Virus record (IMG/VR): IMGVR_UViG_3300029305_001083
Length of the DNA: 64,000 nt
Source: an uncultured virus (IMG/VR IMGVR_UViG_3300029305_001083)
Lineage: Duplodnaviria > Heunggongvirae > Uroviricota > Caudoviricetes
Direction: 5' to 3' (one strand)
Shown: one piece after another, positions 15,374 to 37,917 of the stretch
Position numbering within the stretch: the stretch's first letter is position 1
How the letters are laid out: the number at the start of each line of letters is the position of its first letter
Position numbers and translations under genes: made by a program
The notes under the pieces: model-generated
Told to the model about the DNA's origin: nothing
Seen by the model: only the letters and a program-made list of their open reading frames with translations
The model's database searches: none

Positions 15374-15404
15374 ACGCGAAAAATACAATCCCTTTAATGA
15401 AGAG
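15374..15404 (+). promoter_or_regulatory. 31-bp conserved motif copy 1 (putative phage promoter)
   Basis: ACGCGAAAAATACAATCCCTTTAATGAAGAG. Confidence 0.7.
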
Positions 15405-15457
15405 AGTGGGCTCGGTTGAGTCTCTCTCTTTTATATTTTTTATAAGGGGGTTTTATA

Positions 15458-16132
15458 ATGGATATGAAAAATGTTAACAAAAAGATTGTCGCTGTTGGTT
15501 TGACTGGCGTAATAATTTCAGGGGTTGTTTTAAATCAACAATACGAAATTAATCAACTAGAGAGAGACTTACAAATTCAGCAAAATATGACCGACCAGAA
15601 ACACAACTACACTGAAACACTAATTGATATTTCATCAATTCAGGAAAAACTGAACGATGAATGTAACTTCAAAGTATTAGATGGTTCCATCAATATCAGA
15701 CACACATATGTATACAAACGAGATAGTATTTTGGGTTTTAAAAGCGAGTATAAACTTGTCGGTACAGCCGACTTTTATTATGCTCTAACAGTCGATTTAA
15801 GCCAATCGAATATCACGAAAGCTACCGATAAAAAAATCACAATCGAAGTACCGAGAGCACGAATTGATGAAGGGGCTTATCATCGAGTAGCAAATTCTTT
15901 CGTACGTATCAACGAAGAATGCAGCACTAATATTCTAGCAAATAAATCAGATGCCGAAAAAGCAACAAGACAATGGGAAGATTCTTTTGATACTAAAGGT
16001 ATCGAATATGTTGAGAAGTATATGGTGCGAGAAAGCGTTAAAGAAAAAGTGGATCAACTTACAGTTCGTCAGGTAAAAATACTTATGGAAAAACTTGGAT
16101 ATTCTCAAACTATAGATGTTAAAATCGTATAG
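15458..16132 (+). CDS. membrane-anchored protein (DUF4230-like)
   Basis: N-terminal TM; VDLS...ITIEVP.A.I pattern. Confidence 0.5.
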   Translation: MDMKNVNKKIVAVGLTGVIISGVVLNQQYEINQLERDLQIQQNMTDQKHNYTETLIDISSIQEKLNDECNFKVLDGSINIRHTYVYKRDSILGFKSEYKLVGTADFYYALTVDLSQSNITKATDKKITIEVPRARIDEGAYHRVANSFVRINEECSTNILANKSDAEKATRQWEDSFDTKGIEYVEKYMVRESVKEKVDQLTVRQVKILMEKLGYSQTIDVKIV

Positions 16133-16144
16133 GAGGAGATTATC

Positions 16145-17314
16145 GTGTTTGTATGCGATATGGGTGAATTTATATTTGAAGAGCAACAAAGTGAAGATGT
16201 TTTTCAATCAGCTGAAGATTATGAGTTATCGGAAGATTATATAACTACGGAAGGGGAATATATTATGAGTGAATCACGTTATGGTTTTACAAAAATGAAT
16301 GTTAATGAATTTAAAACTTGGATTAAAAAACAAGGAAATTATGATTACAATGGTATCCAAATACACCACACATATTCGCCAAGCTATGCTAATTTCTATA
16401 AATCAAATGGCGGTCACGAGGATGAATTAACTCGACAAAACAACATGAAATCATACCATGTTAACACAAACGGTTGGGATGATATTGCTCAACATTTCAC
16501 AATTTATCCAAATGGGGCTATCGTAACAGGACGCAGTCTATCAAATACGACAGCCATCGGAATTAGAGGATGGAACTATAATAAAATCTGTATAGAAATT
16601 TACGGTAACTTTGATAAAGGCGGGGACGTCATGACAAATGAACAAAAACAAGCTGTCATTGCCGTGTATGGGGAACTATGCAAAAAGTTCAATATTACAC
16701 CTTCGATTTCAACATTAAGATGTCATGCTTGGTTTACTTCTGGTGGAACATATTTGGGGGATTATTCATCTAGTCGATCAGCTAAAACTTGCCCTGGAAC
16801 AAACTTCATGGGATTTGGAAACACTAGAGAAGCTATAGAGAAAAACTTTATACCGCTAGTTAAAAATTATATTAGTAATGGATCATCAAATTCTAGCGCA
16901 GTAGCAACAAATTATGTCGTTAAAATTAATACTGATACATTAAATGTTCGTAAAGGACCTGGAGCAACTTATAGTGTTGTTGGTGAATTAGGTAGAGGTG
17001 AAGCATATACGATTGTTCAAACTCAAAATGGCTGGGGTAAATTAAAATCCGGAGTTGGATGGATTAATTTAGCTTATACCAAACGTGTCAGTAATACGAC
17101 GGCCGCGTCAGCAACCGTTCAAATGTCTAATTACTTGGTTAAAGTCTCTACGCACAGCTTAAATATTCGCAAAGGTCCTGGCGTATCTTATGATATTTCA
17201 GGAACTGTCAAAAAAGGCGACGTGTTTACAATAACAGAGACTAAAAATGGTTGGGGTAAATTAAAATCAGGAGCTGGTTGGATTAGCTTAGGTTATACTC
17301 AAAGACTAAAATAG
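16145..17314 (+). CDS. endolysin: N-acetylmuramoyl-L-alanine amidase (Amidase_2) plus two SH3b domains; alternative start at 16265
   Basis: IQIHHT, IAQHF, ICIEIYGNFD, KTCPG; two LNVRKGPG...GWGKLKSG.GWI repeats. Confidence 0.9.
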   Translation: MFVCDMGEFIFEEQQSEDVFQSAEDYELSEDYITTEGEYIMSESRYGFTKMNVNEFKTWIKKQGNYDYNGIQIHHTYSPSYANFYKSNGGHEDELTRQNNMKSYHVNTNGWDDIAQHFTIYPNGAIVTGRSLSNTTAIGIRGWNYNKICIEIYGNFDKGGDVMTNEQKQAVIAVYGELCKKFNITPSISTLRCHAWFTSGGTYLGDYSSSRSAKTCPGTNFMGFGNTREAIEKNFIPLVKNYISNGSSNSSAVATNYVVKINTDTLNVRKGPGATYSVVGELGRGEAYTIVQTQNGWGKLKSGVGWINLAYTKRVSNTTAASATVQMSNYLVKVSTHSLNIRKGPGVSYDISGTVKKGDVFTITETKNGWGKLKSGAGWISLGYTQRLK

Positions 17315-17319
17315 GAGAG

Positions 17320-17697
17320 ATGATTATGGCGGATGATTGGGTTGGTGTTGGTAGAAAAGTTAAACGAGATAATTCACAAAAAGTTTACGAAAAAGAGCAT
17401 TTTATAATTTTAAAAGTGAAAAGTGGTAAAAAAATAGGATATATAGCGTATAATACTAAAAAAGAATGGGAAGAAGGTCACACTCATTTAGACAGTTTTA
17501 ATATGGCTAAAACTATCATCGATAATGTATTGAAACGTAAAAAACCCAAAACTAAGAATTTATATTTACTTAACAGTCATATACGTTTGAGCGATAGCCC
17601 GGCATATGATAGATTTATAAACGATATAATTAACGCCAGAAAGAATAAGAAAAAACAAGGATATAGAAACGATAAATATTTAAAGGAGAGATTATAA
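17320..17697 (+). CDS. basic hypothetical protein
   Basis: ORF with SD; lysine-rich. Confidence 0.65.
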   Translation: MIMADDWVGVGRKVKRDNSQKVYEKEHFIILKVKSGKKIGYIAYNTKKEWEEGHTHLDSFNMAKTIIDNVLKRKKPKTKNLYLLNSHIRLSDSPAYDRFINDIINARKNKKKQGYRNDKYLKERL

Positions 17698-17885
17698 TGG
17701 AATATATTATCGGTTGCCTTATAGGATTTATTCTATCATGGATATTTACAAAATTTAGATATGGAAACGGAAATTTTCGCATCAACGAAACTGATGCGAA
17801 TAAGGACGTCTATAAGCTTGTAATTAATGACTTCAACAAGCTACACCGAAGAAGATATTTGCTGGTTAGAATCACGCGAAAATAA
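17697..17885 (+). CDS. small membrane protein
   Basis: N-terminal TM; stop codon lies inside motif copy 2. Confidence 0.6.
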   Translation: MEYIIGCLIGFILSWIFTKFRYGNGNFRINETDANKDVYKLVINDFNKLHRRRYLLVRITRK

Positions 17886-17904
17886 CTTTTGCTATTATGA
17901 GAAG
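17874..17904 (+). promoter_or_regulatory. 31-bp motif copy 2
   Basis: ACGCGAAAATAACTTTTGCTATTATGAGAAG. Confidence 0.7.
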
Positions 17905-17931
17905 AAAATAATTCTAAAGGAGATGTTTGTT

Positions 17932-18252
17932 ATGAAAAAAGATAACAAAAAATTGTTAGAAGAAGTGATTAATGATCGTTTAACAAAATCATTAGGAGAT
18001 AATCCTGACGAAGCATCAGCTGCTTTCGAGGAAGCTATGCAGGCAATCGATAGACAAAATGAACTAGATAAAGATAAAAAAGATAGAATGGTGAAAGTTG
18101 TCGAAGTCGGTATGGTTGTTGTAGCGGCACCTTTGATTGAAGCTGCTTGTAAGAAAGGATTTGCTCGTATGATTTGTGAATTCGAGGAGGATCACATCTT
18201 CACAACGATGGCGGGAAAATCTTTATCAGCATTATTCAAATTTAGAAAGTAA
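17932..18252 (+). CDS. hypothetical protein (cassette ORF)
   Basis: AAGGAG SD, ATG 17932; followed by hairpin 18268-18285. Confidence 0.7.
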   Translation: MKKDNKKLLEEVINDRLTKSLGDNPDEASAAFEEAMQAIDRQNELDKDKKDRMVKVVEVGMVVVAAPLIEAACKKGFARMICEFEEDHIFTTMAGKSLSALFKFRK

Positions 18253-18312
18253 TTCTTACTAAGTAAGGACCGTTTAAACGCGGTCTCTTATTTTTCGAAA
18301 GGGGAAATTGTT

Positions 18313-19071
18313 ATGGAAAAAGTGAAAAATTTTTGTGTTGAAAATGGCGCTAGTATCTTAACTGGTGTTGGTGTTGTAGGTGTTGTTAGTACGGCTGTAT
18401 TAGCAGCAACAGCAACCCCAAAAGCTTTACGTTTATTAGAAGAGAAAGAGCGTGTGGCTAAAGAAACATACGATGAAGAGTTGACTAGATTTGAAAAAAT
18501 TATTGCTGTTACTCCAGCTTATATTCCGGCAGTTCTTAGCGGATTAGCCACGGCATCATGTATCTTAGGTGCGAATCATATTAATAAAAAACAACAAGCT
18601 TCTTTAATGAGTGCATATACATATTTGGCAACTTCATTTGGAGAATATAGACGAAAAGTTAAAGAGGTATTCGGCGAAGAGGGTGACGCTAAAGTTTGTC
18701 AAGAGCTAGAGAAAGAGGTTGATTTATATTTAAAATACGGCTCACTACACGAAACACGATTATTCTATGACGAAATCTCAAAAAGATATTTCGAGATGAG
18801 CATGTATGAAATGAAAGAAGCCGAGTATAACATGAATAGAATGTTTAATTTCTTAGGGGCTCTTAAGTTAAACGAAGTATATGAATTCTTCAATCTAGGT
18901 CCAACTGAATATGGAGAAACCGTTGGATGGGCTGCTTTACGTGATTGGGAAGTTATTGGATATTCTTGGATCGAAGCGACATTTGACGAGATTGAAACAC
19001 CTGATGGTCTACAAGCATTCTCTATCAGATTCAACATGGAACCAACCAAGGATTATCTTCAATGGTATTAG
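18313..19071 (+). CDS. DUF6353-like protein, paralog 1
   Basis: ILTGVGVVGVVSTAVLAA.ATPKA...Y.PA...L..AY...EYR.KV....GEE...LNE.Y...G...GW. Confidence 0.7.
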   Translation: MEKVKNFCVENGASILTGVGVVGVVSTAVLAATATPKALRLLEEKERVAKETYDEELTRFEKIIAVTPAYIPAVLSGLATASCILGANHINKKQQASLMSAYTYLATSFGEYRRKVKEVFGEEGDAKVCQELEKEVDLYLKYGSLHETRLFYDEISKRYFEMSMYEMKEAEYNMNRMFNFLGALKLNEVYEFFNLGPTEYGETVGWAALRDWEVIGYSWIEATFDEIETPDGLQAFSIRFNMEPTKDYLQWY

Positions 19072-19072
19072 T

Positions 19073-19103
19073 ACGCGAAAAATACATGGTCCTTTATGAG
19101 AAG
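19073..19103 (+). promoter_or_regulatory. 31-bp motif copy 3
   Basis: ACGCGAAAAATACATGGTCCTTTATGAGAAG. Confidence 0.7.
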
Positions 19104-19130
19104 ATAATAAATTTAAGGAGAGTGTTAATT

Positions 19131-19316
19131 ATGATGAACAATGAAAATATTAACTTTTTAAAAGCTTGGAGTAAAGCTGAGGAAGCTATTAAGATGATGA
19201 ATAAATATCGAGATAACGACGAGGCTAAATACGCTGAGTGGGAAAAAGTATACTATGATCAAATGGCCATCACAAAAGCAGTAATCCGTAAACAATATTT
19301 GAAAGCTCAAAAGTAG
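19131..19316 (+). CDS. small hypothetical protein (cassette ORF)
   Basis: AAGGAGAG SD; followed by GCAA-tetraloop hairpin 19309-19338. Confidence 0.7.
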   Translation: MMNNENINFLKAWSKAEEAIKMMNKYRDNDEAKYAEWEKVYYDQMAITKAVIRKQYLKAQK

Positions 19317-19340
19317 GCACGCAAGTGCTTTTACTTTTCC

Positions 19341-19371
19341 ACGCGAAATTCACAACGCCTATTATGAGAAA
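19341..19371 (+). promoter_or_regulatory. 31-bp motif copy 4
   Basis: ACGCGAAATTCACAACGCCTATTATGAGAAA. Confidence 0.7.
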
Positions 19372-19402
19372 GACGAAACTAATTTAAAGGAGAGTGTTCT
19401 TT

Positions 19403-19573
19403 ATGAAAAATTTCAAAGTCGATACTGTTCAAGTGGTTGCATTATTAGGTGGTGCGTTTGCTGTAGTAGGTTCAATGTTAACGGACTATGCTAATGATAA
19501 AAAACTTGAAGGTGTTGTTAATGAAAAAGTAGCTAAAGCCATTGCCGAACAATTAGGTAAGATTACTCATTAA
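19403..19573 (+). CDS. 56-aa protein with hydrophobic segment (not in ORF track)
   Basis: MKNFKVDTVQVVALLGGAFAVVGSMLTDYANDKK...; AAGGAGAG SD; hairpin 19572-19598. Confidence 0.7.
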   Translation: MKNFKVDTVQVVALLGGAFAVVGSMLTDYANDKKLEGVVNEKVAKAIAEQLGKITH

Positions 19574-19634
19574 GAATAAGCCACAACGGCTTGTTCTTTT
19601 GCGTTTCACAAATTTATATTTAGGAGGTATTAGT

Positions 19635-20375
19635 ATGGACCTTAAGGAGATCAGAAATGAGGTTATTAATAAGGTATCTAAGAAAAGCCCGGAGATTCTT
19701 GTCGGATTTGGTTTGGCTGGTATGCTTACAAGTACCGTGTTGGCAGTTAAGGCGACACCCAAAGCTCTTGATATTTTAGAACAAGAGGATGAAGATTTAA
19801 CTAAATTGGAAGTAGTTAAGAAAACTTGGAAATGCTATGTACCAGCGGCCGTTGGATATTGTACGTCAGCAGCTTGTATTATCGCAGCTACCACAACTCA
19901 AAATAAACGACATGCGATGTTAGCCGGCGCTTATAAATTATCCGAGTCAGCGTTACTCGAATATAGAAATAAAGTTGTGGAGACACTTGGCGAAGAGAAA
20001 GAGAAGGAGATTCGTGATTCAATCGCCAAGGATAGAGTTGAAGATAGACCTGTAGTAGTTAACTGTCTAGGTAAGGAGGAATTCCTATGTTACGATATGC
20101 TATCCGGACGTTACTTCAAATCAAGCATCGACGTGATTCAGAAAGCGGTAAACGATATGAACTACAAGCTGTTGAACGACAACATCTTATCGTTGAACGA
20201 GTTCTATTTCGAATTAGGCATGAAACCAACCGATATCGGGTATGAACAAGGATGGGATATTTCAAAAGGAATGATTGAAGTTTCATTTAGCTCAATCATT
20301 TCGGAAGATGATAAACCGTGTATTGTTATGCATTTTGATAATCCACCGCAATATGGATTTGATAGATTTATGTAG
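19635..20375 (+). CDS. DUF6353-like protein, paralog 2
   Basis: SPEILVGFG...ATPKA...CYDMLSGRYF...LNEFY..LG...GW. Confidence 0.75.
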   Translation: MDLKEIRNEVINKVSKKSPEILVGFGLAGMLTSTVLAVKATPKALDILEQEDEDLTKLEVVKKTWKCYVPAAVGYCTSAACIIAATTTQNKRHAMLAGAYKLSESALLEYRNKVVETLGEEKEKEIRDSIAKDRVEDRPVVVNCLGKEEFLCYDMLSGRYFKSSIDVIQKAVNDMNYKLLNDNILSLNEFYFELGMKPTDIGYEQGWDISKGMIEVSFSSIISEDDKPCIVMHFDNPPQYGFDRFM

Positions 20376-20376
20376 T

Positions 20377-20407
20377 ACGCGAAAATTACATTCTGTATTA
20401 TGAGAGA
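20377..20407 (+). promoter_or_regulatory. 31-bp motif copy 5
   Basis: ACGCGAAAATTACATTCTGTATTATGAGAGA. Confidence 0.7.
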
Positions 20408-20475
20408 GTGAGACCTCGGTTGGAGCGGTCATTCACGACGCAGCGCAGGTGGTTCGATTCCACACTCGCTCTTTC
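20402..20475 (+). ncRNA. degenerate tRNA-like RNA
   Basis: 11-bp closing stem GAGAGAGTGAG/CTCGCTCTTTC; T-arm GTGG-TTCGATT-CCAC; D-like CTC-GGTTG-GAG; poor anticodon arm; no CCA. Confidence 0.55.
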
Positions 20476-20512
20476 TTTTTTTGTTTTATATTTTAGAGAG
20501 GAGATGTTTATT

Positions 20513-21115
20513 ATGAACGAATACAAAGGTAATTCTCATAGAAGCAAAGAGGAGGCTTCTACAGAAGTAGTACCGGTTAAAAAAGTTGAGCGTGTTGCTA
20601 ATGGTAAAACTCGTAAGAAAGGTGAGGTTCGAAAATTAGCTGATGCGTTTATAGCGGAAGATGTTAAGAGCGTAAAAGATTATATTATTCAAGACGTATT
20701 AATTCCAGCTGCTAAAAAAGCTATTGTCGAGATGGTCGATAGCGGTATTAATATGTTGATATATGGTGAATCTAAACCTAGAAATAAAGATAGAAATAAT
20801 TCACGAGTATCTTATACTAAATACTACGAACGAGAACGAGATTATGACCGAGGAACACGAACACGAGTTCGAGGATACGACTATGATGATATTATTCTAG
20901 ACACTCGTAGAGAAGCAGAAGAAGTATTAGATAGAATGCAAGACTTAATTGATACTTATGGTATGGTGAGCGTTGCTGATTTATACGATTTAGTTGGTAT
21001 CAATGGAAGCTATACGGATAATAAATACGGATGGACTCGTTTACGAGATGCGGATGTTCAACGTGTGAGAGATGGATATTTACTTAAACTTCCAAAAGCT
21101 TTACCATTCGATTAA
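20513..21115 (+). CDS. conserved phage protein
   Basis: EAEEVLDRM..LIDTYG.VSVADLYDLVG...DNKYGW...DGYLL.LP; GAGGAG SD. Confidence 0.75.
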   Translation: MNEYKGNSHRSKEEASTEVVPVKKVERVANGKTRKKGEVRKLADAFIAEDVKSVKDYIIQDVLIPAAKKAIVEMVDSGINMLIYGESKPRNKDRNNSRVSYTKYYERERDYDRGTRTRVRGYDYDDIILDTRREAEEVLDRMQDLIDTYGMVSVADLYDLVGINGSYTDNKYGWTRLRDADVQRVRDGYLLKLPKALPFD

Positions 21116-21544: not shown

Positions 21545-21643
21545 ATGGGTAGCTTTGGTATTGTTATTGGTTATATGTTAATTGGGAGTGTCATTGGACA
21601 CAATTTATATAAAATGATTAAAAAATCTAAAGGAGTGTGTTAA
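21545..21643 (+). CDS. 32-aa hydrophobic peptide (not in ORF track)
   Basis: AAGGAGAGTGTT SD; MGSFGIVIGYMLIGSVIGHNLYKMIKKSKGVC. Confidence 0.5.
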   Translation: MGSFGIVIGYMLIGSVIGHNLYKMIKKSKGVC

Positions 21644-21645
21644 TT

Positions 21646-22560
21646 ATGAAAGAAAAATTTGTTAACGTATATAATGGTGTTAAAGGTAAAGTTGAAAAAC
21701 ATAGCCCTGAAATTTTAATGGGTGTTGGTGTTGTTGGTATTGTTACAGGTACTGTAATGGCTTGTCGAGCAACTATGAAATTAAATGATATTTTAGAAGA
21801 AGCACAAGAAACACGAGATAAAATCAAAGAAGTTGAATCTAATCCAGACTATGAAGATAAATACACAGCAGAAGATGCTAAAAAAGATTTAACTATTAAC
21901 TACGTTCAAACAGGAGTTAAAGTTGCAAAATTATATGCTCCAGCCGTAGCTGTTAGTGTTGCTGGGGTTGGATGTGTGTTGGCTTCACATGATATTATGA
22001 AAAAACGTAACGTTGCATTATCAGCGGCATATTTAACAGTCGATAAATCTTTCAAAGAATACAAACAACGAGTTGTAGATCGTTTCGGGGAAGAAGTAGA
22101 AAAAGAAATCCGTTATGGAATTAAAGCTGAAGAGATTGTTGAAACTGTTACGGACGAAGAGGGAAACGAAACAACTGTAACAGAAACAGTTAAAACAATG
22201 AATCCAACTTTATATTCTGATTACGCTCGTTTCTTCGATGAAGCAAGCCCATGTTGGCAAAATGATCCAGAATACAATTTAATGTTCTTACGAGCTCAAC
22301 AACAATACGCAAACGATTTACTACGAGCAAAAGGGCGTTTATTCTTAAATGATGTATATGACATGTTAGGAATCGAGAAAACTAAAGCTGGACAAATTGT
22401 TGGTTGGGTATATGATAGAGAGAATCCAAATGGAGACAACTTCGTTGACTTCGGTATTTATGATATGAGCAAAGAACGTGTTCGAGCATTCGTAAATGGA
22501 TATGAAACAAACATCTTATTAGATTTTAATGTTGATGGAAATATTTGGGATTTAATGTAA
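21646..22560 (+). CDS. DUF6353-like protein, paralog 3
   Basis: HSPEILMGVG...LYAPAV...LSAAY...FKEYKQRV...FLNDVYDMLG...GQIVGW. Confidence 0.75.
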   Translation: MKEKFVNVYNGVKGKVEKHSPEILMGVGVVGIVTGTVMACRATMKLNDILEEAQETRDKIKEVESNPDYEDKYTAEDAKKDLTINYVQTGVKVAKLYAPAVAVSVAGVGCVLASHDIMKKRNVALSAAYLTVDKSFKEYKQRVVDRFGEEVEKEIRYGIKAEEIVETVTDEEGNETTVTETVKTMNPTLYSDYARFFDEASPCWQNDPEYNLMFLRAQQQYANDLLRAKGRLFLNDVYDMLGIEKTKAGQIVGWVYDRENPNGDNFVDFGIYDMSKERVRAFVNGYETNILLDFNVDGNIWDLM

Positions 22561-24466: not shown

Positions 24467-27178
24467 ATGATTGATTTCTTAATGATCTCGACACGTAGTA
24501 CGAAACGAGGCGTTATCGAAATCTATCCAAAATTCATAATCAAAAAGAGCTCCGACCTTATGATTAGAGGTGGAGACTTCTATGCAATATGGTTGGAAGA
24601 ACGAGGATTATGGTCAACCGATGAACAAGACGCACTACAATTAATAGATAAAGAACTTGATAAATACGCGGAAGAGAACAAAGATAGATTTGATGCTACG
24701 ATTCGGGTTCTGCATATGTGGGACGCCGAATCTGGCATGATAGACGCCTGGCATAAATATTGTCAACGGCAAATGCGGGATTCTTTCCATACTCTAGATG
24801 ACAAATTGATATTCTCAAATATGAAAACGGATAAGACGGATTACGCAAGTAAACGACTATCATACCCCCTAGAGGATGGAGACTATTCTTCATTTGAAAA
24901 ACTTATTTCGACTTTATATACTCCAGAGGAAAGACATAAGATTGAATGGTCTATAGGTTCTATTGTATCGGGAGAATCAAAGAATATTCAAAAGTTTATG
25001 GTGTTCTATGGTTCAGCGGGTACAGGTAAGTCGACAATCTTAAATATTATACAACAATTATTCGATGGATATTACTCGGTGTTTGACGCGCGGGCACTGG
25101 GTTCTAGTAGTAATTCATTCGCACTTGAATCATTTAAGAGTAATCCACTTGTAGCTATTCAACATGACGGTGACTTATCACGAATTGAGGATAATACAAG
25201 ACTTAATAGTTTAGTTTCTCATGAGCTGATGACGGTAAATGAAAAGTTTAAAGCCGCATATTCGAGTAGATTTAATTGTTTCTTATATATGGGTACGAAC
25301 AAGCCGGTAAAGATTACAGACGCTAAATCGGGTTTAATACGACGTTTGATAGACGTATCACCGTCAGGTAACAAATTAAGCCCAGTTGAGTATAAAGCAG
25401 TTATGAAAAGAGTCTCATTCGAGCTCGGTGCAATCGCGAAGCACTGTCTGGATGTCTTCAATGCAAACCCGGGAGCATATGACGACTACGTCCCAATCTC
25501 TATGATGGGAGCTTCGAATGATTTCTATAACTATGTATTAGACGCATACCCAGTATTTAAGAAAGAAAACGCAACGACACTTAAATGTGCGTGGGAAATG
25601 TATAAAAACTATTGTGATGAGGCTAAAGTACCATATCCGATGTCGAAACGAGTATTTAAAGAGGAATTAAGAAACTACTTTAAAGATTATAAAGAACGAT
25701 ATAGACTTGATGATGAAACACGAGTTAGAAGTTATTATATAGGTTTCAGAGAAGAGAAATTCGAAGAGGAGCAAACTGAGGTAAAACCTGTAGAAGAGAA
25801 ACCGAAATTGATATTTGAGTATACAGAATCGATATTCGATGAACTATGTGAGGATTGTTTCGCTCAGTATGCTACTGATAAAGGAACACCAAGTAAAAAA
25901 TGGGATAATGTTGCCACGACTCTAAAGGATATTGATACGAGTCAGCTTCATTATGTTAAGGTTCCGGAGAATCATATAGTTATTGACTTTGATATTCCAG
26001 ACGAAAACGGAAACAAGTCATTAGAACGTAATTTAGAAGAAGCAAGCAAATGGCCACCAACTTACGGCGAGCTCAGTAAGAGCGGAAACGGCGTTCACTT
26101 GCATTATATTTACACGGGAGACCCTAGTAAACTTAGCTCGATATATTCCGAACATATTGAGGTTAAGGTATACTCGGGTAAAAGTTCATTAAGACGTAAA
26201 CTTACGAGATGTAATGATTTACCTATAGCAAATATTAGTTCTGGGTTACCATTGAGAGGAGAGGATAAAGTGGTTAACTTTGAGGCTATTAAAACTGAGA
26301 AAGGTATTCGTACGCTTATTAAGCGAAATATTAGAAAGGAGATTCATCCGGGAACAAAACCTAGCATCGACTTTATTCATAAGATATTAGAAGATGCTTA
26401 TAATAGCGATTTACATTATGATGTAACGGATTTACGACCAGCAGTACTATCATTTGCAGCACAGAGCACACATCAAGCTGATTATTGTATTAAGTTAGTG
26501 AACCAAATGCAGTTTAAATCAAAAGAAGCATCAAATGCAGTGTTGAATGATAGTGAAAAAATTATATTCTACGATGTTGAGGTATTCCCTAACTTGTTCT
26601 TAGTCAATTGGAAATTCCAAGGAGACGACCAAAAAGTGGTTCGTATGATTAACCCTAAGCCGGCTCAAATAGAAGAGTTGATGCGTTTTAGACTTGTTGG
26701 GTTTAACTGTAGACGATACGATAATCATATTATGTATGCAAGAATGATGGGATATTCTAACGAACAATTATACAAACTATCACAAAAAATTGTTACACAA
26801 GGTCAAGGATTCTTCGGAGAGGCGTATAACTTATCATATACGGACGTTTACGACTTTGCGGCTAAGAAACAATCTCTTAAAAAATGGGAGATTGAACTAG
26901 GTATTCATCACCAAGAGTTAGGATTACCTTGGGATGAGCCGGTACCAGAAGAACGTTGGATTGAAGTAGCTGAATATTGTGATAATGATGTTATTGCTAC
27001 AGAAGCAGTATTCAACGAATTAAAAGGCGACTTTACAGCGAGAAAGATATTAGCCGACTTAGCTGGTATGACAGTAAATGATACAACAAATACGCTTACT
27101 ACAAGAATTATATTTGGTAAAGAACGTCACCCTCAACTTGTCTATACAGACTTGGCAACGGGTGAACAATTCTATTAG
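24467..27178 (+). CDS. fused SF3-type helicase, primase (AEP-like) and 3'-5' proofreading exonuclease
   Basis: Walker A GSAGTGKS; VIDFD...SKSGNGVHLHY; ExoI FYDVEVF, ExoII GFNCRRYD, ExoIII YCDNDV. Confidence 0.85.
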   Translation: MIDFLMISTRSTKRGVIEIYPKFIIKKSSDLMIRGGDFYAIWLEERGLWSTDEQDALQLIDKELDKYAEENKDRFDATIRVLHMWDAESGMIDAWHKYCQRQMRDSFHTLDDKLIFSNMKTDKTDYASKRLSYPLEDGDYSSFEKLISTLYTPEERHKIEWSIGSIVSGESKNIQKFMVFYGSAGTGKSTILNIIQQLFDGYYSVFDARALGSSSNSFALESFKSNPLVAIQHDGDLSRIEDNTRLNSLVSHELMTVNEKFKAAYSSRFNCFLYMGTNKPVKITDAKSGLIRRLIDVSPSGNKLSPVEYKAVMKRVSFELGAIAKHCLDVFNANPGAYDDYVPISMMGASNDFYNYVLDAYPVFKKENATTLKCAWEMYKNYCDEAKVPYPMSKRVFKEELRNYFKDYKERYRLDDETRVRSYYIGFREEKFEEEQTEVKPVEEKPKLIFEYTESIFDELCEDCFAQYATDKGTPSKKWDNVATTLKDIDTSQLHYVKVPENHIVIDFDIPDENGNKSLERNLEEASKWPPTYGELSKSGNGVHLHYIYTGDPSKLSSIYSEHIEVKVYSGKSSLRRKLTRCNDLPIANISSGLPLRGEDKVVNFEAIKTEKGIRTLIKRNIRKEIHPGTKPSIDFIHKILEDAYNSDLHYDVTDLRPAVLSFAAQSTHQADYCIKLVNQMQFKSKEASNAVLNDSEKIIFYDVEVFPNLFLVNWKFQGDDQKVVRMINPKPAQIEELMRFRLVGFNCRRYDNHIMYARMMGYSNEQLYKLSQKIVTQGQGFFGEAYNLSYTDVYDFAAKKQSLKKWEIELGIHHQELGLPWDEPVPEERWIEVAEYCDNDVIATEAVFNELKGDFTARKILADLAGMTVNDTTNTLTTRIIFGKERHPQLVYTDLATGEQFY

Positions 27179-27179
27179 T

Positions 27180-27210
27180 ACGCGAAAATAACAACGTATA
27201 TTATGAGAAA
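27180..27210 (+). promoter_or_regulatory. 31-bp motif copy 6
   Basis: ACGCGAAAATAACAACGTATATTATGAGAAA. Confidence 0.7.
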
Positions 27211-27287
27211 GAAGGGTAGCTCAACCAGGTGAGAGCAGCACCGTAAAACGTGAAGGTTGTCGGTTCAAATCCGACCTCTTCTTTTTC
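27205..27287 (+). ncRNA. tRNA-like RNA/pseudo-tRNA between exonuclease and polymerase ORFs
   Basis: Acceptor AGAAGGG/CTCTTCT (extendable to 12 bp), TA, D-arm GCTC..GG..GAGC, T-arm GTCGG-TTCAAAT-CCGAC; defective anticodon arm; no CCA. Confidence 0.7.
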
Positions 27288-27314
27288 TTTTCTATTTTAA
27301 AGGAGAGGATTATT

Positions 27315-32874: not shown

Positions 32875-33372
32875 ATGAATTATTCAAAAATGTTAAAATA
32901 CGACGCTAGTAACTGGGACGGGATTACGGCCACAATATTCTTTAGTGGTTGTAAATTCCGTTGTCCTGGTTGTTTTAATAGTGAGTTATGGGATTTTAAA
33001 TGCGGACAACCGTTCGATAAAAAAGCGAAAAAACAGTTTATATCCTATGCGAAAAACCCACACGTTGATGGTGTATGCTTATTAGGAGGCGAAGTATTTC
33101 AACAAGATTTGGATGAGATATTAGACCTGGTTATTCAACTGACTCGCGAGGTTAAGAAACCGATTCACGTATGGTCTGGGTATACATTCGAAGAGTTAAT
33201 GGCAGATGAGAAATCGATGGTTATTCTACACTACATCGACACATTAGTGGATGGGCCATTTATATTTAAACAAAAAGACCTAACACTTAAATATCGCGGT
33301 AGCTCGAATCAAAGAGTTATCGACGTTAAGCGAAGTTTAAGCGAGGGTAAAGTGGTGATAATTGATGACTAA
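32875..33372 (+). CDS. nrdG: class III RNR activase (radical SAM)
   Basis: SGCKFRCPGCFN, LLGGE, LVDGPF, RGSSNQRVID. Confidence 0.95.
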   Translation: MNYSKMLKYDASNWDGITATIFFSGCKFRCPGCFNSELWDFKCGQPFDKKAKKQFISYAKNPHVDGVCLLGGEVFQQDLDEILDLVIQLTREVKKPIHVWSGYTFEELMADEKSMVILHYIDTLVDGPFIFKQKDLTLKYRGSSNQRVIDVKRSLSEGKVVIIDD

Positions 33373-33425
33373 AAAAGAGAAAGAGGTAAAAGAAAACAAG
33401 AAGTACAAAAAGCGTAAAAAGAAAC

Positions 33426-33456
33426 GCGCGAAATAAACAAGTCCTATTATGAGAGA
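33426..33456 (+). promoter_or_regulatory. 31-bp motif copy 7
   Basis: GCGCGAAATAAACAAGTCCTATTATGAGAGA. Confidence 0.7.
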
Positions 33457-33482
33457 ACATTAATTCGAAGGGGCGATTCTTT

Positions 33483-33644
33483 ATGAATGGAAATCAAAAT
33501 GATACTATTAAAATTATGAGCATGGACAGAAAGTTATTAGCAACTGTGCATTTCAAAGAAGATGGTTCATACGAGATTATTCCAAACGACGAAAGATACG
33601 ACTACTACGAAGGAAAATGGGATGACGACTTAGATTGGGATTGA
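33483..33644 (+). CDS. 53-aa acidic protein (cassette ORF, not in ORF track)
   Basis: MNGNQNDTIKIMSMDRK...WDDDLDWD; AAGGGG SD; hairpin 33643-33662. Confidence 0.65.
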   Translation: MNGNQNDTIKIMSMDRKLLATVHFKEDGSYEIIPNDERYDYYEGKWDDDLDWD

Positions 33645-33697
33645 GAGACTTCACGGTCTCTTTTCCTTTTGACTTTAAAATCATGGAGGATGATAAA

Positions 33698-34213: not shown

Positions 34214-34235
34214 AAAATAAAGGGAGAGTGTTATT

Positions 34236-34511: not shown

Positions 34512-34561
34512 AATCATACTAGGTCCCCTGACCTTAGTTAATCTAAAAAGGAGAGAGAAAA

Positions 34562-34777
34562 ATGTTAAAATTATTATTAATCTTAGAATGCTTAAAAGAA
34601 TTATTCTTAGTGGTGTTAGTTGGAGCCTTCACTTCAATTCTATCAGCAATTGTGGTTGTATATGTTGTTGTTAAAGTCTTAGGAATTAAAGAAATTCTAG
34701 ACATGGAAGATGAAGAGGATTATATTCTTACTAAAGATGATGAAAAAATTCCATATGATGACGAGACTCAAGAGTAA
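34562..34777 (+). CDS. small membrane protein with acidic tail
   Basis: Long hydrophobic stretch; SD. Confidence 0.6.
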   Translation: MLKLLLILECLKELFLVVLVGAFTSILSAIVVVYVVVKVLGIKEILDMEDEEDYILTKDDEKIPYDDETQE

Positions 34778-34789
34778 AGGAGAGATAAT

Positions 34790-35623: not shown

Positions 35624-35717
35624 TGTTTAGTAAAGAATTTGAAATCACAACGTTATTAATGGTGTTATTAGGGATTGATATTTGTCCAACATTAGAAGAC
35701 ATTGAGGAGGAATAGTT

Positions 35718-36050
35718 ATGGAAGCGAGAGAATATCAGGAGTTAGCAGCACGAACAATTAACAAAACATTACATGATTATGAGGTTGAGCAACACGCATT
35801 ACATGGTATGGCTAGTGAAATCGGAGAATTACATGGGTTATATCAAAAAGCATATCAAGGACATGGATTTGATGGTGAACATGCTAAAAAAGAGCTCGGC
35901 GATTTACTTTGGTTTATCGCTGAGTACTGCACTGCTATGAATTGGGATTTAGGTGAGGTGATGTTTAAAAATATTTCTAAGTTATTAGCACGTTATCCTG
36001 AAGGTTTCAAAGCTGAAAATAGCTTAAATCGAGAAGAGGGGGATATCTGA
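35718..36050 (+). CDS. MazG-like nucleotide pyrophosphohydrolase
   Basis: EYQELA.RT, GMASEIGE, KELGDLLW, N..KL..RYP. Confidence 0.85.
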   Translation: MEAREYQELAARTINKTLHDYEVEQHALHGMASEIGELHGLYQKAYQGHGFDGEHAKKELGDLLWFIAEYCTAMNWDLGEVMFKNISKLLARYPEGFKAENSLNREEGDI

Positions 36051-36238
36051 TGACAATTAAAGAGAAAATCTTATTGGGTACTTCTATTATCGGTGTTGGA
36101 GGAGCTGCTGTAGCTGGATATTTTTGTATAGCCTACAAACAGGCAGTTCAATTTTTAGTGGAGGAGCGAGATGAGTCATTAAAACGTCCTTTTATAGGAT
36201 TCGTTTGTGCCAAACCAGAGGAGAAAGAGGAGGAATAA
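36050..36238 (+). CDS. small membrane protein
   Basis: N-terminal TM. Confidence 0.55.
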   Translation: MTIKEKILLGTSIIGVGGAAVAGYFCIAYKQAVQFLVEERDESLKRPFIGFVCAKPEEKEEE

Positions 36239-36239
36239 A

Positions 36240-36881
36240 ATGTCAGTTATTACTAATATGCATGTTTATGATTTAGAGGAGACGTTGGTTGCTAGTGGTT
36301 ATGCCATGATTAACGAATACAATACGATTGATATTTGTAAAAAATTAGATGATCTTCGTGGTACAGTCTACGGCCCTTATGCTGTAGAGGAGAACGCTCA
36401 TGTTAAACGGGCTATGGTTTTAACAAAAGCTCCACTTAACAGCGGTCATTGCTCGTTTCTTAAAGGAATTGTCGTAAATATGGATTTGACATTCACCAAT
36501 AAGGTATGGATAGAATTTCAACGCTATCATTTTGCGGATATTATTACAGGAATGTCGACAATGCATCGCTTGAGTCGATTTGATTTAGAATCAGCATTCA
36601 TCGATTACGTTTCACCCGAAATAATCGAGGTTATGAAACGATTGCAACAAGATTACAACAATAATCCAACTAAAGAAAATTATTTATCATTGGTATATTC
36701 TTGCCCAAGCGGTCTAAAAATGACAGGACGAGTTACGACAAATTATTTACAACTCATGACTATATACAAACAACGACATAATCATCGTTTACCAGAGTGG
36801 CGAACATTTTGTAAAGAATGTGTGGATCAACTTCCATTCTTCGAAGACTTTTTGATAGCGAATGGGGTTGAAATTAAATAA
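36240..36881 (+). CDS. ThyX-like (flavin-dependent thymidylate synthase-like) protein
   Basis: GH.SFL, EFQRYH, STMH, TTNYLQL...QRHNHRLPEW; nucleotide-metabolism context. Confidence 0.6.
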   Translation: MSVITNMHVYDLEETLVASGYAMINEYNTIDICKKLDDLRGTVYGPYAVEENAHVKRAMVLTKAPLNSGHCSFLKGIVVNMDLTFTNKVWIEFQRYHFADIITGMSTMHRLSRFDLESAFIDYVSPEIIEVMKRLQQDYNNNPTKENYLSLVYSCPSGLKMTGRVTTNYLQLMTIYKQRHNHRLPEWRTFCKECVDQLPFFEDFLIANGVEIK

Positions 36882-36888
36882 AGGGGCG

Positions 36889-37045
36889 ATGAGTATGACT
36901 TTGGGATGTTGGTTCTTAGTTGGTGTATTTATTGCTTTAGTTATAGTATTGTATGAGGAGAGTAAGGGGTGATATCGTGGCGTTCGGTTGTTGGTTTATC
37001 CTGGCGTTATTTGGGTTATGGTATATTTTATGCTATTTAGATTAG
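36889..37045 (+). CDS. two tandem related hydrophobic micropeptides (36889-36972; 36977-37045)
   Basis: MSMTLGCWFLVGVFIALVIVLYEESKG and MAFGCWFILALFGLWYILCYLD, each with AAGGGG SD. Confidence 0.45.
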
Positions 37046-37060
37046 AAAGGATTGATATTT

Positions 37061-37234
37061 ATGGCAGATCAAGTAGTGAAATGTGTAAAACGTATTTTTA
37101 GAAGTGATGCGAATGGGTTAACTTTAGATAAAAATTATGAAGTAGTATTCGAGGGTGAGTATTCTTATATTATTATCGATGATAACGGTAAGGTTTTTCC
37201 GTACGATAAGGAGAACTTTGAAGAGCTCGCGTAA
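37061..37234 (+). CDS. small SH3-like beta protein
   Basis: VKCV...LTLDKNYEV...Y.IIDDNG....Y....F. Confidence 0.55.
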   Translation: MADQVVKCVKRIFRSDANGLTLDKNYEVVFEGEYSYIIIDDNGKVFPYDKENFEELA

Positions 37235-37257
37235 TTTACAAGCTCTATTATGAGGAG
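37227..37257 (+). promoter_or_regulatory. 31-bp motif copy 8
   Basis: TCGCGTAATTTACAAGCTCTATTATGAGGAG. Confidence 0.65.
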
Positions 37258-37267
37258 AGTGATAATT

Positions 37268-37360
37268 ATGATGACTATTGGTACAGTTTCATTAATTTGC
37301 GCGGTTGCGTTTGGTATTGAGCTTGCTACGGTGTTATGGTTATCTAAACACGAGAAATAA
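37268..37360 (+). CDS. 30-aa hydrophobic peptide (cassette ORF, not in ORF track)
   Basis: MMTIGTVSLICAVAFGIELATVLWLSKHEK; GAGGAG SD; hairpin 37359-37378. Confidence 0.55.
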   Translation: MMTIGTVSLICAVAFGIELATVLWLSKHEK

Positions 37361-37380
37361 GAGCCTACAAAGGCTTTTAT

Positions 37381-37647
37381 TTTTGGCCCACTTATTGATA
37401 TTTGAAAATGGGTTTGGCCCACTTTTATTTGGGTCATGCTGGAATTCATACGTACGGAAAAATATTTTGGCCCACTTTTTTTGGCCCGTGGCCCACTTTT
37501 ATTTTCAAAACCGGGCCAGCGAAAACGTGGTAATACCAACGTTTGTGGGCATCGTGGCCCACTTTCCCACTTTTTTCTCTTATTAAATGTGATATAAAAA
37601 ATATATAATATATATAGTATGGCAAACTAAAGTGGGTTTTTGGGCCA
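37381..37647. repeat. GGCCCACTT iteron-like cluster with AT-rich tract (candidate replication origin)
   Basis: Copies at 37385, 37416, 37469, 37490, 37556; partial at 37483, 37566; inverted partials at 37629-37647; AT tract 37581-37620. Confidence 0.7.
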
Positions 37648-37677
37648 CGCGAAAAATACACGGTCCTTTATGAGGAG
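37647..37677 (+). promoter_or_regulatory. 31-bp motif copy 9
   Basis: ACGCGAAAAATACACGGTCCTTTATGAGGAG. Confidence 0.7.
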
Positions 37678-37687
37678 AGTGATAATT

Positions 37688-37870
37688 ATGAAAAAATTTA
37701 ATAATACTGAAATTAAATGTTTAGTGGCTGGTGCGTTAGGATTGATATCTGTAGGTCTATTCGCAGCGGCGACAAAATATGAAATCGATGAGATTAAAAA
37801 ATTAGAAGACATGATTAATGACGAAGCCTTAAAGATAGCAGAAGCCGTAAAGAAGAGTGACCTTTACTAA
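37688..37870 (+). CDS. small membrane protein (cassette ORF)
   Basis: GAGGAG SD; one TM; hairpin 37850-37883. Confidence 0.65.
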   Translation: MKKFNNTEIKCLVAGALGLISVGLFAAATKYEIDEIKKLEDMINDEALKIAEAVKKSDLY

Positions 37871-37886
37871 GGCTTCTCTTCTTGCC

Positions 37887-37917
37887 ACGCGAAATTTACA
37901 TGCCCTTTTATGAGGAG
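37887..37917 (+). promoter_or_regulatory. 31-bp motif copy 10
   Basis: ACGCGAAATTTACATGCCCTTTTATGAGGAG. Confidence 0.7.

Follow-up and report, generated by a model that had tools for sequence, protein, structure and literature searches.

We propose that a 31-bp motif, which occurs ten times in the 64,000-nt stretch of viral DNA analysed here (the window), is probably a phage-specific promoter that the phage serves with an RNA polymerase of its own, a 948-aa single-chain two-barrel enzyme which reads the motif directly. The proposal rests on sequence comparisons, on the genes and predicted RNA structures that surround the motif and on the predicted fold of the polymerase.

Ten copies of the motif on one strand

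The motif (ACGCGAAAWWWACA-N5-YWTTATGAGRAG) is gapless, and its ten copies span positions 15374-37917, all on the + strand and each at a gene boundary. An earlier note on this DNA had listed ten such sites, and we found all of them at the same positions and on that strand only:

15374..15404, + strand: copy 1 (ACGCGAAAAATACAATCCCTTTAATGAAGAG), 2 nt past the stop codon of ORF 14887-15372; followed by ORF 15458-16132, then by the amidase/endolysin gene 16145-17314
17874..17904, + strand: copy 2; leader of 33 nt, then the SD-led ORF 17932-18252
19073..19103, + strand: copy 3, 2 nt past the stop codon of the DUF6353 gene 18313-19071; 33-nt leader to ORF 19131-19316
19315-19330: terminator-like hairpin upstream of copy 4
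19341..19371, + strand: copy 4, with a 37-nt leader to ORF 19403-19573
20377..20407, + strand: copy 5, 2 nt past the stop codon of the DUF6353 gene 19599-20375
27180..27210, + strand: copy 6, which separates the two halves (24467-27178 and 27315-28514) of a split DNA primase/polymerase gene
33426..33456, + strand: copy 7, 3' of the nrdG-like gene 32875-33372; 32-nt leader to ORF 33483-33644
37227..37257, + strand: copy 8, overlapping the last codons of ORF 37052-37234; the 30-codon ORF 37268-37360 (16-nt leader) has the purine run of this copy, GAGGAG, as its SD
37647..37677, + strand: copy 9, the purine run of which is the SD of ORF 37688-37870 (16-nt leader)
37887..37917, + strand: copy 10, the closest match to the family-wide consensus, which heads the nuclease-exonuclease-polymerase operon

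A weight matrix derived from these ten copies, and hence circular for those sites, gave them 39.5-54.8 bits, while elsewhere in the window no site scored above 0.9 bits on the + strand or above 0.0 on the - strand. As an independent check, a degenerate pattern allowing up to three mismatches matched ten sites, all on the + strand, whereas 100 dinucleotide-preserving shuffles yielded 0.13 matches on average (standard deviation 0.42, maximum 2), and none of the 100 reached ten. Under uniform placement, the probability that all ten copies fall inside 15374-37917 is 2.9e-5, and the probability that all ten lie on one given strand is 1e-3. The motif is indeed restricted to the non-structural half, as had been noted, no copy being found in the structural and lysis part (42-64 kb and 1-15.3 kb). 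The ORF and leader positions also agree with the description of a motif that sits at gene boundaries, ahead of either a SD-led ORF or a structured RNA. Copies 1, 3, 5 and 6 begin 2 nt past the stop codon of the upstream ORF. The first G after TTAT is followed by a SD-led ORF at a distance of 16-37 nt in six copies, and of 59-172 nt in the four copies endowed with a structured leader.

RNA modules and the candidate transcription start

Four copies (1, 5, 6 and 10) are followed on their 3' side by an RNA module, two of which are tRNA-like. The closing stems previously noticed after these copies are real; in each module, a T tract comes after a closing helix that starts with the first G after TTAT or close to it:

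15399..15441, + strand: 5' hairpin after copy 1; helix GAAGAGAG/CTCTCTTT from the first G after AAT, followed by a T tract
20402..20485, + strand: tRNA-shaped leader after copy 5; 11-bp closing helix from the first G, followed by a T tract
27210..27283, + strand: tRNA-like element after copy 6; Rfam tRNA, 45.2 bits (gathering score 29)
37912..38083, + strand: structured leader after copy 10, 172 nt

The copy-5 leader, which precedes the SD-led ORF 20513-21115, combines a D-arm-like stem with a GGTTCGATTCC T-arm, lacks a proper anticodon arm and is called by neither Rfam nor ARAGORN. In the copy-6 element, to which ARAGORN assigns no normal anticodon, the acceptor stem is lengthened to a 12-bp helix that starts from the first G (27205) and is followed by a T tract. 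The copy-10 leader begins with a closing helix (to 37967) around two small hairpins. Three further hairpins come next, the second of them GGAGG/CCTCC and the last, at 38036-38056, terminator-like with a T tail that extends to 38066.

These helix-plus-T-tract modules at the 3' edge of the motif fit a transcription start at the first G after TTAT. First, 19 of 23 modules have a closing helix whose start falls at positions -4 to 0 from that G, as against 25% of the 265 helices found at 4200 random positions (binomial 1e-8). Second, the SD (GGAG) of copies 8 and 9 sits 2 nt past the first G, inside the purine run, so that a bacterial-type start about 7 nt further on would remove it. Both lines lend indirect support to the earlier suggestion of a start in the purine run, and transcription would begin with the first G after TTAT or no more than about 3 nt away from it. 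The modules of copies 1, 5, 6 and 10 would open long operons with an RNA 5' end locked in a helix and followed by a U tract, an arrangement that may stabilise the 5' end and/or act as a stop for the host polymerase that the phage enzyme can pass.

That the motif is no promoter at all, and acts instead as a protein-binding or recombination site (operator, module boundary or packaging-related) or as an RNA-acting element, strikes us as very improbable indeed. The copies do mark module boundaries: copy 6 splits a DNA polymerase gene that is unsplit in the relatives; the sequence inside the closing helix after a homologous copy differs between close relatives (locus L046 and the window); and ACGCG is preceded by TAGT, which gives a stop codon, in three copies and by TAAT in one. 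However, module exchange at repeated promoters would be a by-product of repetition, and the motif is not palindromic. Furthermore, its orientation on a single strand and its fixed short distance to SD-led ORFs are expected of a promoter rather than of an operator or a recombination site, as are the terminator-then-motif order and the helices that start from the 3' edge of the motif.

A polymerase flanked by HTH domains

The candidate reader of the motif is encoded downstream of copy 10:

38084..38909, + strand: genes of an endonuclease (PHROG 93) and a Cas4/RecB-like exonuclease (PHROG 3953), between copy 10 and the polymerase gene
38913..41759, + strand: gene of the single-chain two-barrel RNA polymerase, 948 aa (PHROG 4291)
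39039-39362: HTH repeats of the polymerase (residues 43-150)
40542-40556: DFDGD loop of the polymerase (residues 544-548)
41634-41747: C-terminal HTH of the polymerase (residues 908-945)

As judged from its catalytic loop and its predicted fold, the 948-aa protein is a two-barrel RNA polymerase. It matches PHROG 4291 (E 0, 1257 bits), whereas the Pfam matches are a weak one to RdRP and others to HTH_38 and sigma-70 region 4. The closest folds to its AlphaFold model (pLDDT 75.6) are those of QDE-1 (E 7e-8), RDR2, the P23-45-type non-virion gp64/gp62 (E 2e-5) and P23-45 gp96. The protein is 37-51% identical to family members in 250 phage records, and has one more N-terminal HTH repeat than nine aligned relatives. 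Neither a second polymerase gene nor a paralogue was found in the window. The protein belongs to the HTH-flanked "putative RNA polymerase" family of Actinobacteria and Firmicutes phages (Koert et al., bioRxiv 10.1101/842583), with which it shares the DxDGD loop and the HTHs at both ends. In the available part of that preprint, the putative polymerase is among the few genes common to the whole phage group and the only shared gene described with a DNA-binding domain, and the word "promoter" does not occur in the main text (bioRxiv 10.1101/842583).

The motif accompanies the polymerase gene

Comparative sequence data support the view that the motif accompanies the polymerase gene in Firmicutes and Actinobacteria phages, with unchanged spacing. 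Using the polymerase as the query, we retrieved 34 IMG/VR loci, which together hold 106 motif matches on the polymerase strand and none on the other; matches occur in 27 of the 34 loci, and no motif copy was found at three of them (L034-L036). In five near-complete IMG/VR genomes (77-100% complete), all 58 copies lie on one strand of each genome, while a reversed-pattern control gave none. The motif also occurs in Faecalibacterium phage FP_oengus (14 copies), Gordonia phage Gravy (11), Streptomyces phage Scap1 (6) and Lactococcus phage P078 (9, without the CGC box), and its spacing is identical in the window and in the relatives that carry it. The relatives examined have a copy-10 homologue 0.9-1.35 kb 5' of their polymerase gene, in several of them just after a terminator-like hairpin. 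In P078, which has no CGC box, the second HTH has SVT where SVR is otherwise invariant; L034 keeps SVR in that HTH, yet no motif was recognised there.

Is the motif a host promoter?

The motif could instead be an early or middle promoter of the host RNA polymerase, recognised by sigma-A alone or with a phage helper on the CGC and ACA boxes. The polymerase of the phage, itself made from copy 10, would then transcribe something else, such as the late block, from a site that we did not recognise. We hold this to be rather unlikely, despite several points in its favour. First, the hexamer is -10-like, its last T being invariant, and two phages, Gravy and P078, have a perfect TATAAT while Scap1 has TATAGT, hexamers that could in principle be used by actinobacterial sigma-A. 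Second, the copies precede early-type small genes and the polymerase's own operon, as is usual when the host makes the phage polymerase. Third, units end with hairpin-plus-T-tract sites resembling intrinsic terminators, of the type obeyed by bacterial polymerase, which counts against our own reading. Fourth, in the available part of the YonO report, this SPbeta polymerase transcribes late genes only, from one start (PMC5467207).

Against the host enzyme, there is no conserved -35 box: at 16-18 bp, the best match reaches at most 3 of 6 positions in eight of the ten window copies. The A at position 2 of the hexamer is present in six copies and missing in four, as well as in all 14 copies of FP_oengus (CTTTAT and similar, as read from the listed sequences). 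The earlier statement that the motif is not a TTGACA-N17-TATAAT promoter is thus upheld; moreover, sigma-70-like sites are not enriched (92 versus 79.8 ± 9.8; 51 versus 40.5 ± 5.6). The CGC, ACA and ATGAG positions are strongly conserved, and sigma-A is not known to contact any of them specifically. The hairpin-plus-U-tract found within 33-83 nt downstream of four operon promoters should stop the host polymerase, and the SD lies 2 nt past the hexamer in copies 8 and 9. Lastly, a search of the stretch from the polymerase gene to the terminase gene revealed no distinct repeated motif, and the architecture and spacing are identical across phages of two phyla.

Proposed mechanism and the first polymerase molecules

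A promoter read by the phage polymerase would comprise three elements: a CGC(G) box lying some 21-24 bp upstream of the start, an ACA box around positions -14 to -12, and YWTWAT abutting the start. The built-in HTH domains would read the upstream boxes, and the TTAT/G junction would be melted. The ten copies would drive the early, nucleotide-metabolism and replication units; copy 10 would drive the nuclease-polymerase operon and, after cos joining, transcription continuing into the structural genes, which have no copy of their own.

The idea that the phage polymerase recognises the motif was already voiced in the earlier note. The co-occurrence of motif and polymerase gene, the polymerase fold and the HTHs speak for it; the first polymerase molecules, however, must come from elsewhere, since the gene that encodes them is itself placed downstream of copy 10. 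They may be delivered with the virion, or stem from leaky host transcription or from dual recognition. In the latter case, weak host recognition of the -10-like part would yield the first polymerase transcripts, and the phage polymerase would then take over all copies by positive feedback. This solves the problem of the gene's position, all the evidence for the phage enzyme applies to it too, and copy 10 happens to carry a -35-like TTGCCA 18 bp 5' of TTTTAT. We nevertheless regard it as quite improbable: TTGCCA is not kept in 17 homologous copies, where the best match reaches 1-4 of 6 positions, and in most lineages the hexamer of the copy-10 homologues is TTTTAT, without the position-2 A.

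Comparison with known systems

Recognition by the phage polymerase, our preferred reading, can be set against several known systems. The lambda PR'-tR' region consists of the late-gene promoter, a short structured RNA (6S) and an intrinsic terminator that has to be passed, through antitermination by Q. Similarly, copy 10, its leader and the hairpin 38036-38066 form a promoter, structured RNA and terminator layout. Unlike in lambda, no Q-like factor was identified in the window, and our proposal is that the phage polymerase would read past the terminator unaided.

T7-type promoters are long, nearly invariant phage-specific sequences, with an AT-rich element abutting a G start and a purine-rich initial transcript; their copies lie genome-wide on one strand, and the polymerase-promoter pair is the basis of orthogonal expression systems. 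The window motif resembles them in being a long phage-specific sequence on one strand, with an AT-rich element next to a G and a purine run, and motif and polymerase could also form an orthogonal expression system, provided that the polymerase requires no other factor. However, T7 polymerase belongs to a fold family unrelated to the two-barrel enzymes, and its gene is transcribed by the host polymerase from ordinary promoters, whereas the window's polymerase gene stands behind a motif copy; the motif is also longer (about -25 to +6) and made of several separate boxes.

A closer precedent is the Thermus phage P23-45, which uses two-barrel single-chain polymerases with promoter motifs of their own, AT-rich for the virion polymerase gp96 and GC-rich for the non-virion polymerase gp64 (Nat Commun 2024, PMC10770324). 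Both phages are siphoviruses whose two-barrel polymerase is a single chain, and in both a phage-specific motif recurs 5' of early and middle genes. By contrast, P23-45 has two polymerases, one of them a fusion with the tape measure protein that is delivered together with the DNA, while the window has one; the available part of the article does not describe the P23-45 enzymes with terminal HTH domains such as those of the window's polymerase; and the motifs are unrelated in sequence, the P23-45 starts being mapped and ours predicted from sequence (PMC10770324).

YonO of the Bacillus prophage SPbeta, which we liken to the window's polymerase by description, is a single-chain phage polymerase distantly related to msRNAPs (Nat Commun 2017, PMC5467207). 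Its promoter sequence is left open in the part of the article available to us, and it serves a late operon only, from one start, whereas the window has ten copies in the early and replication half and none in the late block (PMC5467207). The one mapped YonO start leads to an unannotated non-coding RNA, and in the window structured leaders follow four of the motif copies (PMC5467207).

Ten copies of the motif lie at gene boundaries of the non-structural region

The window is a siphovirus-like phage genome with all genes on the + strand, which are arranged in three blocks.

Gene blocks of the window
42-64 kb, + strand: terminase, portal, capsid-protease fusion and tail genes
1-15 kb, + strand: tail fibre genes, a 2873-aa repeat protein and holin
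15.4-42 kb, + strand: small genes, primase/polymerase, annealing protein, helicase, nucleotide-metabolism genes, two nucleases and the 948-aa protein (hereafter the polymerase)

The ten 31-bp copies (numbered 1-10) that the earlier note had placed in the third block were all found there, starting at 15374, 17874, 19073, 19341, 20377, 27180, 33426, 37227, 37647 and 37887, without gaps and reading ACGCGAAAWWWACA-N5-YWTTATGAGRAG. A weight matrix built from these sites, and hence circular for them, scored them at 39.5-54.8 bits and the rest of the 64 kb at 0.9 bits at most, on both strands. Independently of the matrix, a degenerate pattern with up to 3 mismatches returned the same ten sites, all on the + strand, for an expectation of 0.13 in 100 shuffles (largest shuffle count, 2), and the chance that all ten would fall within 15374-37917 under uniform placement is 3e-5. 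The placement on the + strand at gene boundaries was likewise borne out, every copy occupying a short intergenic gap: four copies start 2 nt past the stop codon of the preceding gene, and a fifth lies over the final codons of an ORF. From the first G (the G directly following TTAT or its equivalent, in the presumed start region) to the ORF led by a Shine-Dalgarno sequence (SD), the distance is 16-37 nt in six copies and 59-172 nt in the other four. The motif is extended and nearly invariant, and its repeats precede phage genes on their coding strand.

Several observations were made alongside. ACGCG is directly preceded by TAGT (three times) or TAAT (once), from which the upstream gene takes its stop codon, at 15370-15373, 19069-19072, 20373-20376 and 27176-27179, and the putative promoter unit seems to carry its own stop codon. 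Two small ORFs, 37268-37360 (30 codons) and 37688-37870 (60 codons), have leaders of only 16 nt, with the SD within the purine run of the motif. The early region encodes three DUF6353 (PHROG 2152) paralogues (18313-19071, 19599-20375 and 21637-22560), at least two of which lie closely behind motif copies. In the tail-fibre region, the 2873-aa protein (4797-13418) comprises eight DUF285 repeats, leucine-rich repeats and a CotH-kinase-like stretch.

The motif occurs together with the polymerase in related phages

The motif and the phage RNA polymerase co-occur across relatives. Using the polymerase as the query, we fetched 34 IMG/VR loci (37-100% identity in the best-matching segment), in which the matrix of the window found 106 sites, every one of them on the polymerase strand, 27 of the 34 loci being positive. 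As for the seven loci with no matrix match, two have almost no upstream DNA, two (L028 and L032) possess a variant copy before the nuclease genes, and three of the 34 (L034-L036) have no recognisable copy. Copy 10 heads the nuclease-exonuclease-polymerase operon; in all lineages compared, its homologue is located upstream of the polymerase start, at a distance of 0.9-1.35 kb, and is the best kept copy (ACGCGAAAAAAACATGCCCTTTTATGAGGAG or near). Five genomes that are 77-100% complete gave 11, 14, 13, 7 and 13 pattern matches, each set on one strand only, and no match to a reversed control pattern. Similarly, the coding strand bears one or more sites in 50 of 65 loci anchored on the DNA polymerase, and the opposite strand bears a site in no locus. 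One related record (G001) is a near-identical 16-kb fragment with five of the same copies, and is not independent of the window; a nucleotide search of a phage collection with 36000-42000 gave no match.

Motif copies in named phages
FP_oengus (Faecalibacterium): 14 copies, ACGCGAAAAAWNCA-N5-CTTTATGGARG
Gravy (Gordonia): 11 copies, TCGCAGAAATTACACGTCCTATAATGAGACCCC or close
Scap1 (Streptomyces): 6 copies, TCGCAAG...ACA-N5-TATAGTGAGACCCC
P078 (Lactococcus): 9 copies, TTTTACATACCCTATAATGARAGG, CGC box absent

FP_oengus carries its copies in the early region and ahead of the nuclease-polymerase operon; the structural genes within the 50 kb examined have none. The spacing between the CGC box and the hexamer is the same in all named phages having a CGC box, and the core common to the named phages is ACA-N5-YWTWRT followed by G. 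Since the motif is kept across phages of Clostridia, lactic acid bacteria and actinomycetes, it is unlikely to be a host-specific signal. Covariation between the helix-turn-helix (HTH) helices of the polymerase and the motif variants is suggestive in P078, and contradicted or unclear in L034 and L032; it is given no weight here. A literature search with four motif strings returned, among the matches listed, only the short ACGCGAAAA, in unrelated contexts, and no paper naming a promoter of the PHROG 4291 family was found.

Three distant relatives (L028:995-1420, L021:7657-7800 and L034:8200-8330) also have clusters of short repeats, direct and inverted (GTGCCACTTT / AAAGTGGCAC and the like), which stand either just before the copy at the head of the polymerase operon or upstream of the polymerase gene, and which may be operators or an origin.

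The motif differs from sigma-70-type promoters

The statement of the earlier note that the motif is not a TTGACA-N17-TATAAT promoter was confirmed on both elements, and we rejected a sigma-70-type promoter because no -35 element is conserved and A2 of the -10 hexamer is inconstant. First, the best -35 match 16-18 bp upstream has at most 3 of 6 bases in eight of the ten copies. It reaches 4 of 6 in copy 4, and 5 of 6 in copy 10, where TTGCCA stands 18 bp from the hexamer; at this place, 17 homologous copies of relatives match at only 1-4 of 6 bases. Second, the hexamer at motif positions 20-25 has T6 in all ten copies and A2 in six of them, and A2 occurs in none of the 14 FP_oengus copies, by reading of the listed sequences. 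Third, sigma-70-like sites are not enriched in the region. A reading of the motif by the host polymerase, which we regard as unlikely, is favoured by the hexamers of Gravy, P078 and Scap1, which possess both A2 and T6 and would suit sigma-A; it sits poorly with the conservation of the motif in phages of such different hosts.

The PHROG 4291 protein is a predicted two-barrel RNA polymerase

The ORF 38913-41759 (+ strand) matches PHROG 4291 with an E-value of 0, and the polymerase is encoded in 250 phage records. In Pfam, it shows a weak RdRP match (residues 535-649) and HTH matches (residues 124-148 and 908-945), and it contains the DxDGD metal-binding loop as DFDGD (residues 544-548), which all 16 relatives of the alignment keep unchanged. 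The AlphaFold model built on the alignment of these 16 relatives (mean pLDDT, 75.6) was matched by Foldseek to QDE-1 (E 7e-8), plant RDR2, the non-virion gp64/gp62 of P23-45-type phages (E 2e-5), P23-45 gp96 (1e-3), and Pol II Rpb1 and crAss-like phi14:2 gp66 (E 5e-3 to 8e-3). The TM scores being low (0.14-0.43), the likeness is confined to the catalytic core. The modelled fold is that of a two-barrel single-chain RNA polymerase, which is predicted to synthesize RNA. A search of the window for a second (virion) polymerase gene, with the 16-relative profile against six-frame ORFs of at least 80 aa and with a DxDGD-like pattern, found none. On virion content, a paper on an Arthrobacter phage contains no passage about mass spectrometry.

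The N-terminal part of the polymerase contains three HTH repeats in the window and two in nine relatives, with one more HTH at the C-terminus; the extra repeat of the window (39039-39140, about residues 43-76) is absent from the nine aligned relatives. Residues 1-30 (38913-39000) include an invariant peptide, HYG.P.RSGRYPWGSG (H14, G16, S21-G22-R23, P25, G27-S28-G29), predicted to be disordered (pLDDT under 50) and found in no other ORF of the window, which may be an interaction or targeting signal.

In the available text of bioRxiv 10.1101/842583 (Koert et al.), this family is a predicted RNA polymerase with HTHs at both ends, it belongs to the few genes common to a group of Actinobacteria and Firmicutes phages, and no other of these common genes is described as having a DNA-binding domain; the word 'promoter' is absent from that text. 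Our literature search found no bench test of DNA-dependent RNA synthesis by the PHROG 4291 family.

Closing helices point to a candidate transcription start near the first G

It had also been claimed that stems closing structured RNA leaders begin in the purine run of copies 1, 5, 6 and 10. In these four copies, folding of the RNA that begins with the first G does bring its purine run together with a pyrimidine run located 33-83 nt further on, and behind the closing helix stands a T tract. We surveyed 107 pattern matches, some of them false, in 14 sequences, namely the window, nine pieces representing five IMG/VR genomes, and the four named phages. A closing helix of at least 8 bp with a T-rich tail was found at 23 matches; it starts at -4 to 0 relative to the first G in 19 of these 23, and exactly at the G in 10. 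For comparison, 6.3% of 4200 random positions from the same regions have such a helix within 10 nt on either side, and only 25% of these control helices fall in the same five positions (binomial, 1e-8). From one lineage to another the closing helices differ in sequence and retain their pairing. The SD GGAG of copies 8 and 9 is situated 2 nt after the first G. Together, the helix starts and the SD position fit, at the level of sequence, a transcription start at or within about 3 nt of the first G, not about 7 nt further on. That the motif is instead a non-promoter site appears very improbable to us. Contigs of relatives, from three metatranscriptomes and one run rated as probably DNA, show 90-99% likeness, contigs being unable to show starts; in one run the depth was greatest just after copy 10, keeping in mind that contig depth cannot rank regions.

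Structured RNA modules follow four copies

Two of the four modules, those after copies 5 and 6, are tRNA-shaped. The element after copy 6 (27210-27283, + strand) has a cloverleaf and scores 45.2 bits with the Rfam tRNA family RF00005 (gathering score, 29), the sole match when 15300-38200 was searched at a permissive Rfam threshold. It has no normal anticodon, as ARAGORN reports it as 'tRNA-???' with a two-base anticodon, likewise in three relatives. The module after copy 5 (20402-20485, + strand) has D-arm-like and T-arm features, and no anticodon arm. These three relatives are two related genome records (G002 and G003) and FP_oengus, where the element called by ARAGORN again stands directly behind a motif copy.

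tRNA-shaped elements in relatives (G002, G003, FP_oengus)
L109:12982-13056
L111:4246-4319
L040:2935-3006

Four tRNA-like elements can be aligned from the promoter-like motif through the T arm, with good D and T arms and with acceptor stems that extend into the leader; their anticodon arms cannot be aligned as a normal stem-loop. Such elements may direct RNA processing, protect the 5' end or serve as a decoy. The 172-nt leader of copy 10 consists of a closing helix round two hairpins, two more hairpins and a terminator-like hairpin (38036-38066), with compensatory changes in 8 of 23 predicted pairs in an alignment of seven sequences, a small sample. All four modules, as well as the hairpin 38036-38066, present a G+C-containing hairpin followed by a T tract, and are predicted intrinsic terminators.

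An insert of 136 nt divides the DNA primase/polymerase gene (24467-28514, + strand) into ORFs of 903 and 399 aa; the insert comprises one base, motif copy 6, the tRNA-like element, a T tract and an SD. Among the 15 relatives examined, the 12 at about 65% identity or less have one continuous frame. In L046 (90%), the gene has the same split with a motif copy, and the closing helix encloses a different sequence; L045 and L047 (97%) have a split gene too, with another ORF standing directly before the second half.

The interval 42040-42290, which separates the polymerase block from the first late gene, contains a stretch of G/C runs (about 42080-42150) as well as an inverted repeat whose arms are 34 nt long (42170-42203 / 42252-42285). 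In actinophage relatives the genome ends at the equivalent place, with the polymerase gene at the right end, and 42040-42290 is probably a cos region. From the polymerase to the terminase genes, no distinct late promoter was seen, the only features noted being this GC-rich cos-like stretch and the long inverted repeat.

A probable promoter of the phage polymerase

The best available reading, which we consider probable, is that the motif is a promoter read by the phage polymerase, because the motif recurs across hosts and the polymerase is, in the available text of Koert et al., the sole shared gene for which a DNA-binding domain is described. The main argument is the co-occurrence of the two in sequence data, from which we infer, rather than demonstrate, recognition. 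The attribution to the phage enzyme made in the earlier note therefore stands in that the motif travels with the polymerase; it is weakened in that the polymerase gene itself lies behind copy 10, with a hairpin and a T run just upstream of that copy in several relatives, since an enzyme solely reading the motif cannot make its own first copies. A motif read by both the host and the phage polymerase is, in our opinion, improbable, more so than one read by the host enzyme.

Starting from recognition by the phage polymerase, we tentatively propose a wider and rather doubtful scheme, that of a self-contained, sigma-free polymerase-motif system with modules that gate the host polymerase and protect 5' ends. 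The HTH domains of the enzyme itself would read a multi-box promoter in widely separated hosts, from Clostridia and lactococci to actinomycetes. Next to the promoter, the modules, with a helix-locked 5' end, often a tRNA shape, and a U tract after it, would act as selective gates, terminating the host polymerase and letting the phage enzyme through, and they would also shield the long transcripts of replication and late genes at their 5' end.

Other phage polymerases are known to have promoters of their own. The PHROG 4291 family has so far only been predicted, as a single-chain, two-barrel polymerase with HTHs at both ends. A 31-bp candidate promoter, with its spacing kept across two phyla, makes three questions accessible to direct bench experiments with cultured phages, namely what YonO-like enzymes recognise, whether a factor is needed and when they are active. 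The window contributes the promoter-proximal, 5'-locked and partly tRNA-shaped modules, which here indicate the start site indirectly. Should the enzyme need no partner, it would provide both a compact orthogonal expression system for Gram-positive hosts and an example of promoter recognition through domains built into a two-barrel polymerase.

Two known systems can be compared with the one proposed here. According to the accessible part of PMC10770324, phage P23-45 solves the problem of the first copies with a virion polymerase; the window differs from it, having no second polymerase gene. Besides the P23-45 enzymes, the only bench-tested relative of this general kind that we found is YonO, which, in the accessible part of PMC5467207, reads one late promoter, a single-promoter habit that speaks for reading of the repeated motif by the host polymerase.
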